Shown here in pieces: positions 56,419-64,000 of a stretch of DNA of 64,000 bases (its first letter is position 1; each line of letters begins with the position of its first letter). The stretch lies in NCBI GenBank assembly GCA_001770205.1, contig MEQL01000061.1, positions 62,001-126,000 on the forward strand, given 5' to 3'. The position numbers and the translations under genes were made by a program. Below the pieces are notes generated by a model. It did not search any database and had not been told where the DNA came from. It saw only the letters and a program-made list of their open reading frames with translations. Source of the DNA: Bdellovibrionales bacterium RIFOXYD12_FULL_39_22 (lineage in GTDB: Bacteria > Bdellovibrionota > Bacteriovoracia > Bacteriovoracales > Bacteriovoracaceae).

Positions 56419-58020
56419 TTATAGCGTATTTTCAATCAAAGATACTTCTTTAGAAGTAGCTCCGTTTGTACTGATTAGTTCTTTCACTTTTCGAATAGCA
56501 TGAATAATTGATGTATGATCACGGCCACCATAAAAGGCACCAATTTCTTGCAAGGTGGCGCCAATTATCTTATGAGACAAATACATGGCGACATGGCGCG
56601 CCATAGTAATTTCTTTGCTACGTGTTTTTGACTTTAAATCTGCAACATGAACTTTATAGTGTGATGCACAGGCCTTAGAAATTGTATCAAGTGAATGTTT
56701 TTTTTGTTCGCCATTGCTATTTATGGCCAATAACTCTTTAACAATATCTGCGTCTATTTCAACATTCATCACGTCTGAGTACGCGGAAAGTTTTACAAGC
56801 GCTCCCTCTAGTTCGCGAATACTATCTCTAGTATGCTGGGCAATTAGCTGGAAAAGATCATCGTGTATAAAGAGATCAATTTCATAGGCCTTCTTTTTTA
56901 AAATAGCAATTCTAGTCTCTAAATCAGGCTTTTGAATATCAATAACCAGTCCCCACTGAAGCCTAGTTTTAATTCGCTCTTCAATACCGTCAATTTCTTT
57001 TGGTGTCTTATCTGAAGTAAAAATTAACTGCTTCCCTTTAATATAGAGTTCATTAAAGATATGGAAGAATTCATTTTGTGTTCCCTTTTTATTTTTTAAT
57101 TCATGAATATCATCAATCATTAAAACGTCGACTTTTTCTGAATATTTTTTTTGAAAAGAAGTTATGTCATTGCGCAAAGTTGCCGCAACCATTTCATTTT
57201 GAAAATCGCGAGCGGTTATTAAACAAATAGTCAAAGAGGGAAAGTTTTCTTGGATACCGTTAGCAACAGCGTGCAACAGATGTGTTTTTCCTAGGCCCGA
57301 ATCGCTATATATATATAATGATGGATATTTGCCGGCCTTTCCTGGACTTCCAGATATGGCACGAGCTGTGGCGTATGCTAAATTATTTGAAGGGCCGATA
57401 ATAAAGCTATCAAAAGTTTTTTTCTTATCAATAACGACACCCAGGTCAGAAGGCCGCAAATGTTCTAGGTATTTGGATTCAACTTTTAAATTTAAATCAT
57501 CTTTTGTTGGCACTAATGTTTTTGGTAGAGAAAACTTAACTTCTTTAGCTTGTTTTGGTCTGTCTAATTCACCTTTTTTTTCTTGCAGGGAATGAAGAAT
57601 ATTATCCTGATTAGAACTAGGGGAGGAATTGGTCTTGGCGACAGAAATACTGAAGGCAAACTCTTTTCCCAAAGTACCAATAATTGCCTCATTAATATTA
57701 GGCATATAATGGCGCTCTAAAATTGTCTTAATAAAAGGAGTTGGAACGGAAAACTCTATTCTTCCACTTCGAATTGTTTTTAAAGAAAAATTATTATCAA
57801 AATATGCAGAAAATTTTTGAGATGAAACTGAATTTTTAAGATGCGATAAAATATTCCGACTAATTTCTTCTGCTTCATGGGCCAGCATTGATTCTTCCGC
57901 AGTATTTTCTGTCTTCTTGGCGGCGGAAGTTTCCTTGATAATGGTGTTGGCAAGATCTAATGTTTTAAGGTTTTTCGCAGATGAATTTAAAAAAAGCTCA
58001 AAAGGAAAATCTTGACTCAT
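56419..58020 (-). CDS. dnaA: Chromosomal replication initiator DnaA
   Basis: TFDSFIIG, SGLGKTHL, IDDI, RELEGAL, GGRDHTS; ATG 58020 preferred over TTG 58047. Confidence 0.97.
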   Translation of the reverse strand: MSQDFPFELFLNSSAKNLKTLDLANTIIKETSAAKKTENTAEESMLAHEAEEISRNILSHLKNSVSSQKFSAYFDNNFSLKTIRSGRIEFSVPTPFIKTILERHYMPNINEAIIGTLGKEFAFSISVAKTNSSPSSNQDNILHSLQEKKGELDRPKQAKEVKFSLPKTLVPTKDDLNLKVESKYLEHLRPSDLGVVIDKKKTFDSFIIGPSNNLAYATARAISGSPGKAGKYPSLYIYSDSGLGKTHLLHAVANGIQENFPSLTICLITARDFQNEMVAATLRNDITSFQKKYSEKVDVLMIDDIHELKNKKGTQNEFFHIFNELYIKGKQLIFTSDKTPKEIDGIEERIKTRLQWGLVIDIQKPDLETRIAILKKKAYEIDLFIHDDLFQLIAQHTRDSIRELEGALVKLSAYSDVMNVEIDADIVKELLAINSNGEQKKHSLDTISKACASHYKVHVADLKSKTRSKEITMARHVAMYLSHKIIGATLQEIGAFYGGRDHTSIIHAIRKVKELISTNGATSKEVSLIENTL

Positions 58021-58235
58021 AATTAGTATTATCCAGATTTTTTGCAATTAGTTTTGCGGGGGCCATTATGTAGCATTAAGATTAATTCTTAGCAACAATA
58101 CTTTAAGTCTTTTAAAATTATTTTTTATCATGCTTTCATAATTTTCAATATTGACCTTTTCTCTTTTGCTTTGTAGAAGGGTTAGTTACTTCTATTTAGT
58201 GAAAATATTATAATTTTTTCAATAAGGATTGAATT

Positions 58236-60484: not shown

Positions 60485-61933
60485 ATGAATAGTTTTATTG
60501 ATCCGATTATTGCGTGTGCTACCGGTCTGGGGACTAGGTCGGCAATAGCGATTATTCGGATAAGTGGTTTTGCTAAAATCGATCTTTTTTTTAATTATTT
60601 TTCAAAAAATTTTACTTTGATTGCTCCACGAATTTCAACATTAGTTGATCTGTTAGATAATGGTGAAATTTTAGATAATGTGCTGGCAACTTATTTTCCT
60701 GCCCCACATAGTTATACGGGCGAAAACATTTTAGAGATTTCGACTCACGGTAATCCAATCATTGTTAATCGTGTAATTAATTTATTTATTACTCAAAAAT
60801 TAGCTCGGCAGGCAACTGCCGGGGAATTTACTTCGCGAGCTCTCGCAAATAAGAAATTGACACTTAACCAGGTAGAGGGCCTCGAGCTGTTGCTTAATGG
60901 CAGAAATGAGTTAATGTGCACTCAGGGCCAACGGGCATTGCGCGGAGAATTGTCTTTAGAGTATGAAAGGCTTTATGATGATTTTAAAAATATTAAAATG
61001 GCAGTAGAGCTATCAATTGATTTTTTGGAGGACGTGGGTGAACAGGCGGCGACACATAATTTGGATTTATATATTAAACGCTACTTGTCAAATTTATTAC
61101 TTCTTTATAATCGAGCTAATTTTTTAAAAGGAAGCTTTTATTCGCCGCAGATTGTACTTATTGGAGAAACTAATGCTGGAAAGAGCTCTCTTTTTAATAA
61201 TATTTTAGCGCAGAATCGATCTATAGTTTCTCAAGAACGAGGAACTACCAGAGACTATATTTCTGAAGTTGTTACTATTGGAGAGGCAGATTTTGTACTA
61301 ATTGATACCGCCGGATTTCGAGATGAGATTAATAGTGCTGTTGAGCGGGAGGGGGTTAATCGTTCTGACTTATTATTTTCCTCCGCCTATTTTAAAGTAT
61401 TGGTAATTAATCCCACAGAGGTATTAGACCATAAGAATAAAATATATTTGCAAAACTATGATTTAATTGTTTTCACTCATGCGGACCTGCCAAATTTTGT
61501 TGATAATATTCAGGCGCTTAATTTAAATGTGCGTGCTAAAAATGCTATTTATCTGACGAATTCAAGCAATGCTGGTTCTATAGGACCAAAAACTATATCT
61601 GGTTCTATAGGACCAAAAATTTTGCATAAGGGTTTTGGTCCTATAGAACCGGCCATTAATCCTGCAGAGACTATAAAGCAGAGTGTTTTACAGAAGTATC
61701 GAGACGATATTGCAAAAAATCCGATCATAATTACTCGTCATCAGGAAGTCATTAATCGAGTTTTTGATTTGTCTGAGCATTTTTTGTCGGACTCACAACT
61801 TTTATCTTCTGATATCTCTATTCTAGCTTCTAATTTAGCGTTGATTGAGAAGGAGATTGCTAGTTTAATTGGAATTATTACAGTCGATGATCTTCTTTCT
61901 TCTATTTTTTCGAATTTTTGTATAGGTAAGTAG
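60485..61933 (+). CDS. mnmE: tRNA modification GTPase MnmE
   Basis: IIRISG, SYTGEN, GETNAGKSS, GTTRD, DTAG, C-terminal FCIGK. Confidence 0.95.
   Translation: MNSFIDPIIACATGLGTRSAIAIIRISGFAKIDLFFNYFSKNFTLIAPRISTLVDLLDNGEILDNVLATYFPAPHSYTGENILEISTHGNPIIVNRVINLFITQKLARQATAGEFTSRALANKKLTLNQVEGLELLLNGRNELMCTQGQRALRGELSLEYERLYDDFKNIKMAVELSIDFLEDVGEQAATHNLDLYIKRYLSNLLLLYNRANFLKGSFYSPQIVLIGETNAGKSSLFNNILAQNRSIVSQERGTTRDYISEVVTIGEADFVLIDTAGFRDEINSAVEREGVNRSDLLFSSAYFKVLVINPTEVLDHKNKIYLQNYDLIVFTHADLPNFVDNIQALNLNVRAKNAIYLTNSSNAGSIGPKTISGSIGPKILHKGFGPIEPAINPAETIKQSVLQKYRDDIAKNPIIITRHQEVINRVFDLSEHFLSDSQLLSSDISILASNLALIEKEIASLIGIITVDDLLSSIFSNFCIGK
61572..61651. repeat. Three copies of a near-palindromic 16-mer inside mnmE (two direct, one inverted)
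   Basis: CTGGTTCTATAGGACCAAAAA at 61572-61592 and 61599-61619; inverted TTTTGGTCCTATAGAACC at 61633-61650. Confidence 0.95.
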
Positions 61934-61937
61934 ACCT

Positions 61938-63800
61938 ATGAATTTTGATGACTCTTTTGACATTGCTGTTGTTGGTGCGGGCCATGCCGGAATTGAGGTG
62001 GCTTGGATTGCGGCGCAGTTAAATATGCGCGTGGCACTTTTTTGTCTTCCCGATGTTGCTATTGCCTCTATGCCTTGCAATCCTTCTATCGGTGGCGTTG
62101 GAAAGGGCCAGATTGTTCGCGAGTTAGACGCTTTAGGCGGGTTGATGGGAGTTTTGGCAGATAGATGTGCTATTCAATATCGTACTCTTAACGAGTCTAA
62201 GGGGCCGGCAGTTAAATCTACTCGCTGTCAAGTCGATAAGGAGAAATATTCTGCACTGGCCGAGCAGTTTTTGGCACAGTCATCAAATATTAGAATTTTA
62301 AAACTCAAAGTTTCTCTCATTTCTCGTCAATGTACTGATAATTATTTTATTATTTCTTCAGATGATCGGACTTTTTTGAGTCGTACATTGGTTATCACCG
62401 CAGGTACATTTTTGGATGGCAAAATACATATTGGCGCAGATAAGTTTTTGGGTGGAAGAAATATGCATGATTCGGCGCCTGCTCTAAATGATCTCTTCAA
62501 TAACGTGCCGTTTGTTAAAAAGCGCTTTAAGACAGGAACTCCTGCAAGGCTTGTTAAGTCGACTATTAATTTTTCAAACTTAGAAGAGCAGATTTCTGAT
62601 CCCAAGACTCGTTGTTTTCACCACCAAAATGCAAATGGTGAGCGTTTTTTGCGCCAAACTAGTTGTTTTTTGGCACATACAAATGATGTGACACTTCAAA
62701 TAATTAGATCAAATCGTGAACGTTCGCCCCTTTTTAATGGACAAATTTCAGGCGTGGGGCCGCGCTATTGTCCCAGTATTGAAGACAAGGCATTTCGTTA
62801 CCCAGATCGTAATACTCATCATGTTTTTTTAGAACCAGAAGGACTTGAACTGGATACAATTTATCCTAATGGTCTCTCCACTTCTCTACCTAAAGATGTT
62901 CAACAAGCTTTTATAAATTCTATTGTTGGGTTGGAAGAGGCGATGATCGCAAATTATGGATATGCAGTCGAATATGATGTAATTGATACAACTTTTTTGC
63001 ATCCAACTTTAGAACATTCACAGATTCCAAATCTTTTTTTTGCTGGACAGGTTAATGGTACCTCTGGTTATGAGGAAGCAGCAGCACAGGGGATTGTTGC
63101 GGGAATTAATGCCGCTTTTAAGTTGTTGGGTTTTGCCCCTTTTGTTTTACTCAGATCAGAATCATACATTGGTGTTTTGGTAGATGATCTTGTTTCGCGC
63201 AATGTTGACGAACCTTATCGGTTATTCACGGCGCGAGCAGAGAATAGACTTTTTATTCGCGAAGACAATGTCGTTTTGCGCATGGCCAAGTATCGAAAAC
63301 TATTGGGTTTGTCCGCAGAAATTGATTTTTATCATGAGAAATTTGTTAATAATTTTGATATATTATTTCAAGTTGTATCAAGTTTTACCTATCGCCCGTC
63401 ATTGCAAATTAAAGAGAGATTTATTAGATTTAATTATGGAGAGATTTTTGAGAATTTAACCATGGCAGAGCTTTTGCGCCGCAGCAATCTTGATCCGGTC
63501 TCAGTTCTTGGTTTTGAGTTGGTAGAAAATGGGATTTTTTTTCATTCAGATGTTGTTGCTGCTGTGGCAACTACAATTAAGTATGAGGGTTATATTGCGC
63601 GTAATTTTGTCGAGAATATGCGCTTTGACAATATTTTGCGTAAAAAAATTAATTGGCAGCAGCTAATGTTATCAAATAATATTTCAAATGAGTGTAAGCA
63701 GCGTATTGGACAAGAGCGGCCTGAAACTTTTTTGCATCTTACAAAGATTAATGGCATTCGTCCGGCAACATTAGCTTATGTGGCGGGGACATATTGTTAA
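61938..63800 (+). CDS. mnmG: tRNA uridine-5-carboxymethylaminomethyl modification enzyme
   Basis: VGAGHAG, MPCNPSIGG, FKTGTPAR, GPRYCPSIEDK, GYEEAAAQG. Confidence 0.98.
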   Translation: MNFDDSFDIAVVGAGHAGIEVAWIAAQLNMRVALFCLPDVAIASMPCNPSIGGVGKGQIVRELDALGGLMGVLADRCAIQYRTLNESKGPAVKSTRCQVDKEKYSALAEQFLAQSSNIRILKLKVSLISRQCTDNYFIISSDDRTFLSRTLVITAGTFLDGKIHIGADKFLGGRNMHDSAPALNDLFNNVPFVKKRFKTGTPARLVKSTINFSNLEEQISDPKTRCFHHQNANGERFLRQTSCFLAHTNDVTLQIIRSNRERSPLFNGQISGVGPRYCPSIEDKAFRYPDRNTHHVFLEPEGLELDTIYPNGLSTSLPKDVQQAFINSIVGLEEAMIANYGYAVEYDVIDTTFLHPTLEHSQIPNLFFAGQVNGTSGYEEAAAQGIVAGINAAFKLLGFAPFVLLRSESYIGVLVDDLVSRNVDEPYRLFTARAENRLFIREDNVVLRMAKYRKLLGLSAEIDFYHEKFVNNFDILFQVVSSFTYRPSLQIKERFIRFNYGEIFENLTMAELLRRSNLDPVSVLGFELVENGIFFHSDVVAAVATTIKYEGYIARNFVENMRFDNILRKKINWQQLMLSNNISNECKQRIGQERPETFLHLTKINGIRPATLAYVAGTYC

Positions 63801-63801
63801 T

Positions 63802-64000
63802 ATGGATATTCGAGAATTTTCTGATTTATATAATGATTTTCTTTTTTTGGGGCCATTAGCAGGAATTAATCTCACGGCAATTTCTGGAAAGGATGATTTT
63901 TTTTCACGTCAAATTATAGATTCTGTTTTACCCTTTGAGAAAAGTAACATTATAACTACACTTCTTTTAAGCGGAGAATACGCCGTAGTTGATATTGGCT
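63802..64000 (+). CDS. rsmG: 16S rRNA m7G527 methyltransferase, truncated by the window end
   Basis: Manual translation MDIREF...GINLTAI...QIIDSVLP...VVDIG; directly after mnmG. Confidence 0.85.
   Translation, partial: MDIREFSDLYNDFLFLGPLAGINLTAISGKDDFFSRQIIDSVLPFEKSNIITTLLLSGEYAVVDIG

Follow-up and report, generated by a model that had tools for sequence, protein, structure and literature searches.

A 16-bp palindrome with the consensus TGGTYCTATAGRACCA recurs around the replication origin of Bdellovibrionales bacterium RIFOXYD12_FULL_39_22 (genome G000) and of its relatives in the family Bacteriovoracaceae, hereafter the family. The motif was recognised in a stretch of 64,000 nucleotides, the window, which corresponds to C61:62001-126000 of a 62-contig, 3,947,588-base (3.95 Mb) assembly and in which three copies lie inside the mnmE gene. 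Judging from the sequences, the copies are very probably a cluster of protein-binding DNA sites maintained by selection at the origin. We favour the reading, to which we assign a probability of roughly 0.55, that they are loading sites for a second, family-specific ParB protein (ParB2), forming a second centromere interleaved with parS.

A palindromic word repeated within mnmE

Sites 1 and 2, both TGGTTCTATAGGACCA on the plus strand, occupy positions 61573..61588 and 61600..61615, the second starting 27 bp after the first, and each is read as GSIGP in the MnmE protein. Site 3 follows site 2 by 36 bp, at 61636..61651. It is an inverted copy (minus strand; TGGTCCTATAGAACCG on the plus strand), is read as GPIEP and is the reverse complement of the other two save for the final base. 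The repeated word, its frame-preserving offsets and the three peptides had been described in an original prediction made from the window alone and are correct as given there; the exact word common to the three copies, GGTTCTATAGGACCAAAA (two direct occurrences and one inverted), is at 18 nucleotides longer than the one then reported. The same prediction took the inverted copy, which changes the peptide and keeps the DNA word, as a sign of selection on the DNA. Such selection stands, but the argument is weaker than stated because either strand of a near-palindrome encodes G[PS]I[GE]P anyway if the frame is unchanged. Likewise, the A/T tract noted on one side of each word is a true feature of the three copies that is not kept in relatives, where the flanking T and A are.

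The host open reading frame (ORF), mnmE (60485..61933, plus strand; 482 aa), contains the Pfam domains TrmE_N, MMR_HSR1 and MnmE_helical. The sites fall in MnmE residues 309-394, a poorly aligned segment that links the GTPase domain to the C-terminal helical domain; alignment to the solved MnmE structure 3gee spans only residues 7-308 and 395-482. When the 14-mer at the heart of the site was searched for in the window allowing two mismatches or fewer, six strand matches (the three sites) were obtained against 0.30 expected, and none of 100 shuffled sequences reached six. In the whole assembly the exact 14-mer occurs four times, always on contig C61 and always within the same 13 kb spanning the parAB1 genes. 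Three of these copies are those in mnmE. The fourth, CGGTCCTATAGAACCA, lies 13 kb downstream, at positions 74563-74578 if the window numbering is continued past its end (14-mer C61:136564-136577), and is read as GPIEP in a 728-aa ORF for which no family match was found. Among the 29 near-palindromic 14-mers that have at least five G/C and at least three copies in G000, only the motif has its copies clustered. The shuffles, the whole-genome count and this clustering test together rule out a chance origin of the repeated word. A further copy with one mismatch, on contig C31, sits in an unrelated 1171-aa ORF with the A/T flanks reversed and is probably fortuitous.

The last part of the window is an origin block comprising dnaA (56419..58047, minus strand), which marks the region as origin-proximal, rnpA, yidD, yidC, mnmE, mnmG (61938..63800, plus strand) and the 5' part of rsmG (63806..64000, plus strand), which continues past the window end. 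At the RNA level, the inverted copies allow the mnmE messenger to form a long hairpin (window 61560-61665; -41.3 kcal/mol, z = -6.5). This hairpin is a by-product of the paired palindromes, and it might affect translation through the array. The repeat region has no match in Rfam.

Selection on DNA rather than on peptide

A total of 108 instances of the motif were mapped at one mismatch or less. Most of them (63) lie in mnmE, five in mnmG, two in the C-terminal part of parA1 and one each in dnaA, yidC, rsmG and the 728-aa ORF. Six occur in long ORFs outside the reference matches, namely an extended mnmE ORF of G019 and an N-terminal extension of parB1 in G016, and the remaining 28 are found where the longest open frame is below 200 aa, mostly between parB1 and the bactofilin gene, between rsmG and parA, and in the spacer after the atp operon. 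Thus, the word is found in nine genes as well as in intergenic DNA. Inside long ORFs it is read in frame 0, as G[PS][IM][GE]P, in 74 cases, in frame +1, as xSYRT or xFYRT in MnmG, in five, and in frame +2 in one; the third frame of the motif core holds a TAG triplet. The frame-shifted sites in mnmG come from five relatives, the gene being without a site in G000. Three genera share one MnmG position with a frame +1 site, read as xSYRT or xSYRS (L040:10085, L047:8859 and L050:14956), at which G000 has none.

To remove ascertainment bias, we also carried out a peptide-first search, looking for G[PS][IM][GE]P in 24 MnmE ORFs. Of the 65 matches, 62 are encoded by the motif word. Glycine is specified by GGT in all 65, isoleucine by ATA in 56 of 58, and the CCA codon is used in 58 of 65, at a genome-wide usage of 21% for GGT among glycine codons and of 21% for ATA among isoleucine codons. 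Within G000 the peptide occurs eight times; the four copies at the origin all use the word and none of the four elsewhere does. The orthologues of MnmE, for which the original prediction had envisaged inserts variable in number and invariant at synonymous positions, show exactly this: between zero and nine copies, arranged as in-frame tandem units of 24 to 54 bp. Since the word is kept across reading frames, genes and intergenic DNA while synonymous positions are invariant, selection must act on the DNA rather than on the peptide, as the prediction had maintained.

Two arrangements outside mnmE were also observed. In G016 (L061 8968-9089), three copies spaced by 54 bp fall within the N-terminal extension of parB1, as part of AKEKSGSIGPKKESG repeats. 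The spacer between parB1 and the bactofilin gene carries motif copies in several genomes, with up to five in G013.

Site definition and distribution in the family

The view that the word is a palindrome of the size of parS was borne out by the consensus given above, of which the looser half-site is TG[GC][TC][CT]C[TC]A. Immediately outside the 14-mer, at positions that the search left free, 197 of 216 half-sites carry the flanking T/A; because these flanking bases are kept, the site is taken to be 16 bp long.

Distribution was assessed in a sample of relatives (24 other genera of the family and 16 genomes from outside it), a family sample of 150 genomes and a phylum sample of 51 genomes from the family and 199 from outside. 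Among the relatives, the pattern GGTYCTATAGRACC was found in 22 of the 24 other genera and in none of the 16 genomes outside the family. With GGTYCYATRGRACC, matches were obtained in 141 of the 150 family genomes (67 of 69 genera) and, in the phylum sample, in 49 of 51 family members against 17 of 199 others. Family genomes contain 1-11 copies, as compared to 0-2 for a reversed-pattern control, and the matches outside the family are nearly all single, approximately at the level of that control. Four genomes with no strict match (G020, G100, G155 and G086) have, in the corresponding places, sites built from the variant half-site TGCCCC[TC]A. The variant is present as three tandem copies with 24-bp spacing in G020 and as a perfect palindrome, TGCCCCCATGGGGGCA, in G100.

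Origin regions were fetched for 27 family genomes. The order dnaA-yidC-mnmE-mnmG-rsmG-parA-parB-bactofilin-atp is kept, and in all 27 every motif copy lies within this block or just past it, the sites being confined to a single region of 18 kb or less. The anticipated clustering at the origin, around mnmE-mnmG-rsmG-parAB, is thus a family-wide property. Searched with the relaxed half-site pattern, the origin loci (552 kb) yielded 167 matches, and control loci around the parAB2 genes described below (211 kb) yielded none. The assembly of G012 places parAB1 on one contig and mnmE, yidC and dnaA on another (L046, G012:C16). The motif copies accompany mnmE and dnaA, and a search next to mnmE revealed no canonical parS. 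In G014, the sites are on a contig without marker genes that also carries a homologue of a 136-aa gene that other genomes have downstream of the block. Finally, when 25 origin loci were surveyed de novo for palindromes in common, only two families emerged, canonical parS (core present in 17 of 25) and the motif (10-14 of 25).

Canonical parS and ParB1 beside the motif

The original prediction proposed that the chromosomal ParB had switched specificity and that canonical parS was missing. Inside the window there is indeed no canonical parS at three mismatches or fewer, but a perfect one, TGTTCCACGTGGAACA, lies 392 bp past the window end, at C61:126392-126407 (64392-64407 in continued window numbering), 71 bp upstream of parA1 and within the 3' end of rsmG. 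G000 has no other match at two mismatches or fewer. Searched for downstream of rsmG, parA1 (64478-65341 in the same numbering) and parB1 (65356-66288) are both present beyond the window end, and the ParB1 protein has the ParB_N, HTH_ParB and ParB_C domains. Directly after parB1, throughout the family, comes a bactofilin gene (66311-66673 in G000; L006:3311-3673), followed by the atp operon. In Bdellovibrio bacteriovorus, too, a bactofilin gene, bd3904, directly follows parB, as PMC10547168 reports.

Canonical parS, at one mismatch or less, is found in 23 of 24 other family genomes (one per genus) and in 13 of 16 genomes from other families of the phylum, and it adjoins parAB in the origin loci fetched. 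The helix-turn-helix (HTH) of ParB1, GKERS.[IV]AN[FY]LR ... GH[AG]K, keeps residues G170, K171, R173, N178 and G201, which contact parS in the Caulobacter ParB structure (PMC7383237), and these contact residues are identical between the family and the families without the motif. Because canonical parS and the canonical ParB1 HTH are both kept, the lineage has not replaced its centromere: the perfect parS in rsmG and the canonical ParB1 exclude a replacement and contradict the proposed switch. Their joint occurrence, which had been named beforehand as an argument against a new parS, does not bear on the existence of a second class of sites. The suspicion of a ParB with altered recognition fared better when transferred from the origin-encoded ParB1, which is canonical, to the second ParB of the genome, whose recognition helix is altered. 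As to sites for Noc (Noc-binding sites, NBS), G000 has merely scattered matches at 2-3 mismatches, which we discarded.

The motif, TGGTCCTATAGGACCA when set against the canonical TGTTCCACGTGGAACA, agrees with it at 10 of 16 positions; it fails the canonical consensus and is missed by parS searches at three mismatches or fewer. Most genomes have a canonical parS at the mnmE-mnmG junction, approximately 0.3-0.4 kb away from the mnmE array, and a second parS in rsmG, with further motif copies in the parB1-bactofilin interval and after the atp operon. The motif sites are 88-700 bp from canonical parS in many genomes, and parS falls inside the span of the motif sites in 14 of the 22 loci that have parS. 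G000 has the rsmG parS only, 2.8 kb from the mnmE array.

A second ParB specific to the family

ParB_N proteins number exactly two in G000. Besides ParB1 there is ParB2 (259 aa), encoded on contig C39 directly after ParA2, which has a KGGVGKT Walker A motif, and before a 287-aa protein (operon L030:169-2739, minus strand). The parA2 gene is directly upstream of parB2 in 26 of 26 loci. Orthologues with 54-65% identity are present in 147 of 150 family genomes, including all 110 of high quality, and at E <= 1e-25 the phylum sample gave 51 of 51 family members against none of 199 others. The cultured Bacteriovorax stolpii and Halobacteriovorax sp. both have a ParB2 orthologue.

The N-terminal domain of ParB2 matches Pfam ParB_N (E = 2.8e-15) and has the GERRxR and ENxxR nucleotide-binding motifs, with G95, E96, R97, R98, R100, E130, N131 and R134 invariant in 21 orthologues. 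The HTH is near-invariant, SERKI..ALGISKSEVHRSL.IAK, and in HMMER alignments residues 51-217, this element included, align to Myxococcus xanthus ParB and Bacillus subtilis Noc. An AlphaFold model (pLDDT, the predicted local distance difference test, 75.5) has Noc, ParB and KorB as its top Foldseek matches over about 200 columns. The C-terminal 40-60 residues are poorly conserved and of low confidence in the model. Positions 173, 179, 184 and 201 set the specificity of ParB and Noc, being R, T, A and G in Caulobacter ParB and Q, K, K and R in Noc, according to PMC7383237. Transferred to that numbering through the HMMER alignments, ParB2 has K, S, K and Y. It also alters residues common to ParB and Noc (K171 to I or L, N178 to R, R204 to L). 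Because both the specificity residues and these conserved HTH residues are changed, ParB2 would be expected to have a new DNA specificity.

A clade with fewer strict sites is distinguished by an S/C polymorphism at HTH position 179, which follows the phylogeny and proves nothing. A plasmid origin of ParB2 was considered and rejected, the closest matches in PLSDB being generic ParBs below 40% identity. The 287-aa protein encoded by the third gene has no Pfam or NCBIfam match; its N-terminal region appears hydrophobic by eye, and its gene stands beside parB2 in many, not all, relatives.

Which protein binds the motif

We favour ParB2 as the binder because the phyletic boundaries of protein and motif are sharp and match, the HTH is conserved and diverged, the geometry of the sites is that of ParB sites, and ParB2 has no site of its own nearby. 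We infer from these comparisons that ParB2 dimers would recognise the palindrome through the diverged HTH and, by analogy with ParB, Noc and KorB, might close as a clamp dependent on cytidine triphosphate (CTP), assembling over the origin region a second complex for partition or organisation. ParA2, or an interplay with ParB1 loaded at a distance of a few hundred bp, would then act upon this complex. Binding, CTP-dependent loading and spreading, and a role in segregation or in organising the origin are all, in this sense, putative functions of ParB2. In such a gene-dense origin, sites would be tolerated in ORFs solely where the frame gives G[PS][IM][GE]P or xSYRT, and the permissive linker of MnmE would let them expand in frame as tandem repeats with a unit length of 24 to 54 bp. 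The complete picture, of one origin with two interleaved centromeres and two CTP clamps of the ParB family, ParB1 on parS and ParB2 with its own ParA2 on TGGTYCTATAGRACCA arrays 0.1-0.7 kb away, is tentative, and we would place it slightly short of an even chance.

Several observations weigh against the assignment to ParB2. The link between protein and motif consists of one shared phyletic boundary and the elimination of alternatives and, since kin are not independent, this boundary amounts effectively to a single evolutionary event; a co-occurrence test based on independent losses has no power because almost every family genome has ParB2 and almost every one has the motif. Where one contig holds both (G003, G009, G019, G044 and G094), parB2 is 260-690 kb from the motif sites, though partition proteins usually adjoin theirs. 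Neither the motif nor any shared palindrome was found within approximately 4 kb of parAB2 in 25-26 loci, in a survey of narrow scope that covered palindromes only. The Pfam domains HTH_ParB and ParB_C, the latter representing C-terminal dimerisation, are not matched by ParB2. No covariation was detected between the half-site variants TGGTCC, TGGTTC and TGCCCC and substitutions in the recognition helix of ParB2. Some lineages with an intact ParB2, such as G086, have only 0-3 strict or relaxed sites and, conversely, three motif-bearing genomes (G087, G123 and G166) gave no ParB2 match, all of them being 68-82% complete.

The same sites could in principle be read by ParB1, the motif being a second class of parS for one protein. 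Its 16-bp parS frame and 10 shared positions, its nearness to canonical parS, and the F or Y that family ParB1s have at specificity position 179 would fit. Yet the motif replaces the central ACGT by YATR and alters position 3, while the contact residues of ParB1 are unchanged from those of families without the motif, the F at 179 being found also in the motif-less G025. In addition, a second class of sites would be needless with canonical parS kept, and specificity in the phylum appears narrow: B. bacteriovorus ParB did not accumulate even on Caulobacter parS (PMC10547168). We regard binding by ParB1 as improbable. Still less credit is due to explanations at the level of RNA, peptide or selfish DNA, in which the copies would be a hairpin of the mnmE-mnmG messenger, a functional G-P-I-G-P repeat of MnmE or a small mobile repeat. 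They could draw on the hairpin described above and on the 63 of 108 copies that sit in mnmE as in-frame tandem units. Against this, copies also occur singly, between genes, in at least eight other genes and in another frame; synonymous positions are invariant, and away from the origin the genome encodes this peptide with other codons. Half-site changes are mirrored so that the palindrome persists, as in TGCCCCCATGGGGGCA, which speaks for the DNA level, and neither the Rfam search nor the genome, where no copies occur elsewhere, lends support to an RNA or a mobile repeat. The whole group is very improbable.

More weight, though well below that of ParB2, goes to a different DNA-binding protein, which we consider rather unlikely. 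It could be a factor anchoring or regulating the origin in the manner of RacA at its ram sites, or the factor that blocks ParB clustering in attack-phase Bdellovibrio. For B. bacteriovorus, PMC10547168 reports that in attack phase the 242-330 bp around each parS block ParB clustering by way of a species-specific factor. That result shows that cis elements beside parS matter in the phylum. ParB2 cannot itself be the Bdellovibrio factor, because it was detected in none of the 199 genomes from outside the family. One candidate for another binder is P0123, a 136-aa protein encoded approximately 4 kb past the fourth site (L006:15732-16142, that is C61:140732-141142). Its N-terminal stretch resembles an HTH, in our judgement and with no family match, and it has a coiled coil and weak matches to NUDE_C and DUF3972. 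Homologues are encoded 10-20 kb from parAB1 in 15 family genomes, and that of G014 lies between two motif sites. P0123 matches no DNA-binding family, and its phyletic fit is much worse than that of ParB2: with this protein as query, homologues were detected in only 16 of 24 family genomes, being missed in the site-rich G009 and G017, against 11 of 16 motif-less genomes of other families. P0123 is a possible DNA-binding protein of the origin, having homologues near parAB1 both within the family and in further families of the phylum. We identified no additional candidate specific to the family, though no systematic search was made.

Other repeats

A genome of another family that lacks ParB2, G324, has four GGTCCCATAGGACC-like copies with spacings of 90 and 135 bp (L086, G324:C39:54247-54620). 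Their flanks are not T/A and the contig is not that of ParB1; the cluster is probably a coding repeat and was set aside. In G000 itself, the 16-mer AAAAAATGCATTTTAT is found at seven places, mostly within 30 bases of contig ends (C4:25, C11:28, C22:1, C29:15, C46:25 and others), and probably represents the terminus of a repeat or insertion sequence at which the assembly is interrupted.

Relation to known systems

In bacteria with multipartite genomes, such as Vibrio (ParB2/parS2) and Burkholderia, separate ParABS systems with distinct parS sites each serve their own replicon. The family resembles them in having two ParA/ParB pairs per cell, each, presumably in this case, with its own site specificity, and differs in that both classes of sites are side by side at the origin of one chromosome. 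RacA of B. subtilis provides a second kinetochore-like system through palindromic sites, ram, that lie around the origin and are not ParB sites; the ram sites are GC-rich 14-mers distributed across hundreds of kb, and RacA functions specifically in sporulation.

A close parallel to a ParB paralogue of new specificity is Noc in Firmicutes. Unlike the motif sites, which occur at the origin alone, NBS sites are distributed across the chromosome, and Noc is not known to have a ParA partner, whereas ParB2 is encoded together with ParA2; furthermore, K171, N178 and R204, common to ParB and Noc, are altered in ParB2. The likeness is that Noc, too, is a paralogue coexisting with ParB on one chromosome and reads a different 16-bp palindrome through few HTH changes (PMC7383237), and that ParB2 shares K184 with it. 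The canonical parS of ParABS systems (TGTTNCACGTGNAACA, bound by ParB/Spo0J) is like the motif a 16-bp palindrome with the outer frame T-G-.-T-C-C ... G-G-A-.-C-A, present in few copies within approximately 10-15 kb of parAB and oriC, often in ORFs and conserved within clades. Unlike it, the motif differs at 6 of 16 positions (central YATR instead of ACGT; G or C at position 3), coexists with canonical parS within the same few kb, has as its presumed binder a paralogous ParB encoded far away, and forms in-frame tandem arrays of up to nine copies per gene. The motif would be a centromere of the ParABS kind that shares its origin with the canonical system; its site is new, and the ParB specificity probably is as well. 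The claim that the site is undescribed is supported by the literature: in open-access text, we found no mention of the motif, nor of a second ParB or second site in Bacteriovorax, Halobacteriovorax or Bdellovibrio.

Significance

Should ParB2 bind these sites, this would be, to our knowledge, the first chromosome in which the sites of two ParABS-type systems are intermingled at one origin, and ParB2 would represent a natural, family-wide new specificity, with KSKY where ParB has RTAG and Noc QKKR. The arrays also illustrate plainly how a DNA-binding site can shape a protein sequence, the MnmE of the family having from zero to nine G-P-I-G-P blocks only because the DNA word is needed. The existence of cultured members, Bacteriovorax stolpii and Halobacteriovorax sp., makes the hypothesis directly testable. 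The second system would be a sequence-defined counterpart of the cis-acting factor beside parS in Bdellovibrio, and it could serve as a second kinetochore or as a gate on the loading or spreading of ParB1, fitted to the polyploid, non-binary cell cycle of these predators. If this is true, it would provide a handle on how predators with filamentous, multi-copy growth organise and count their origins.

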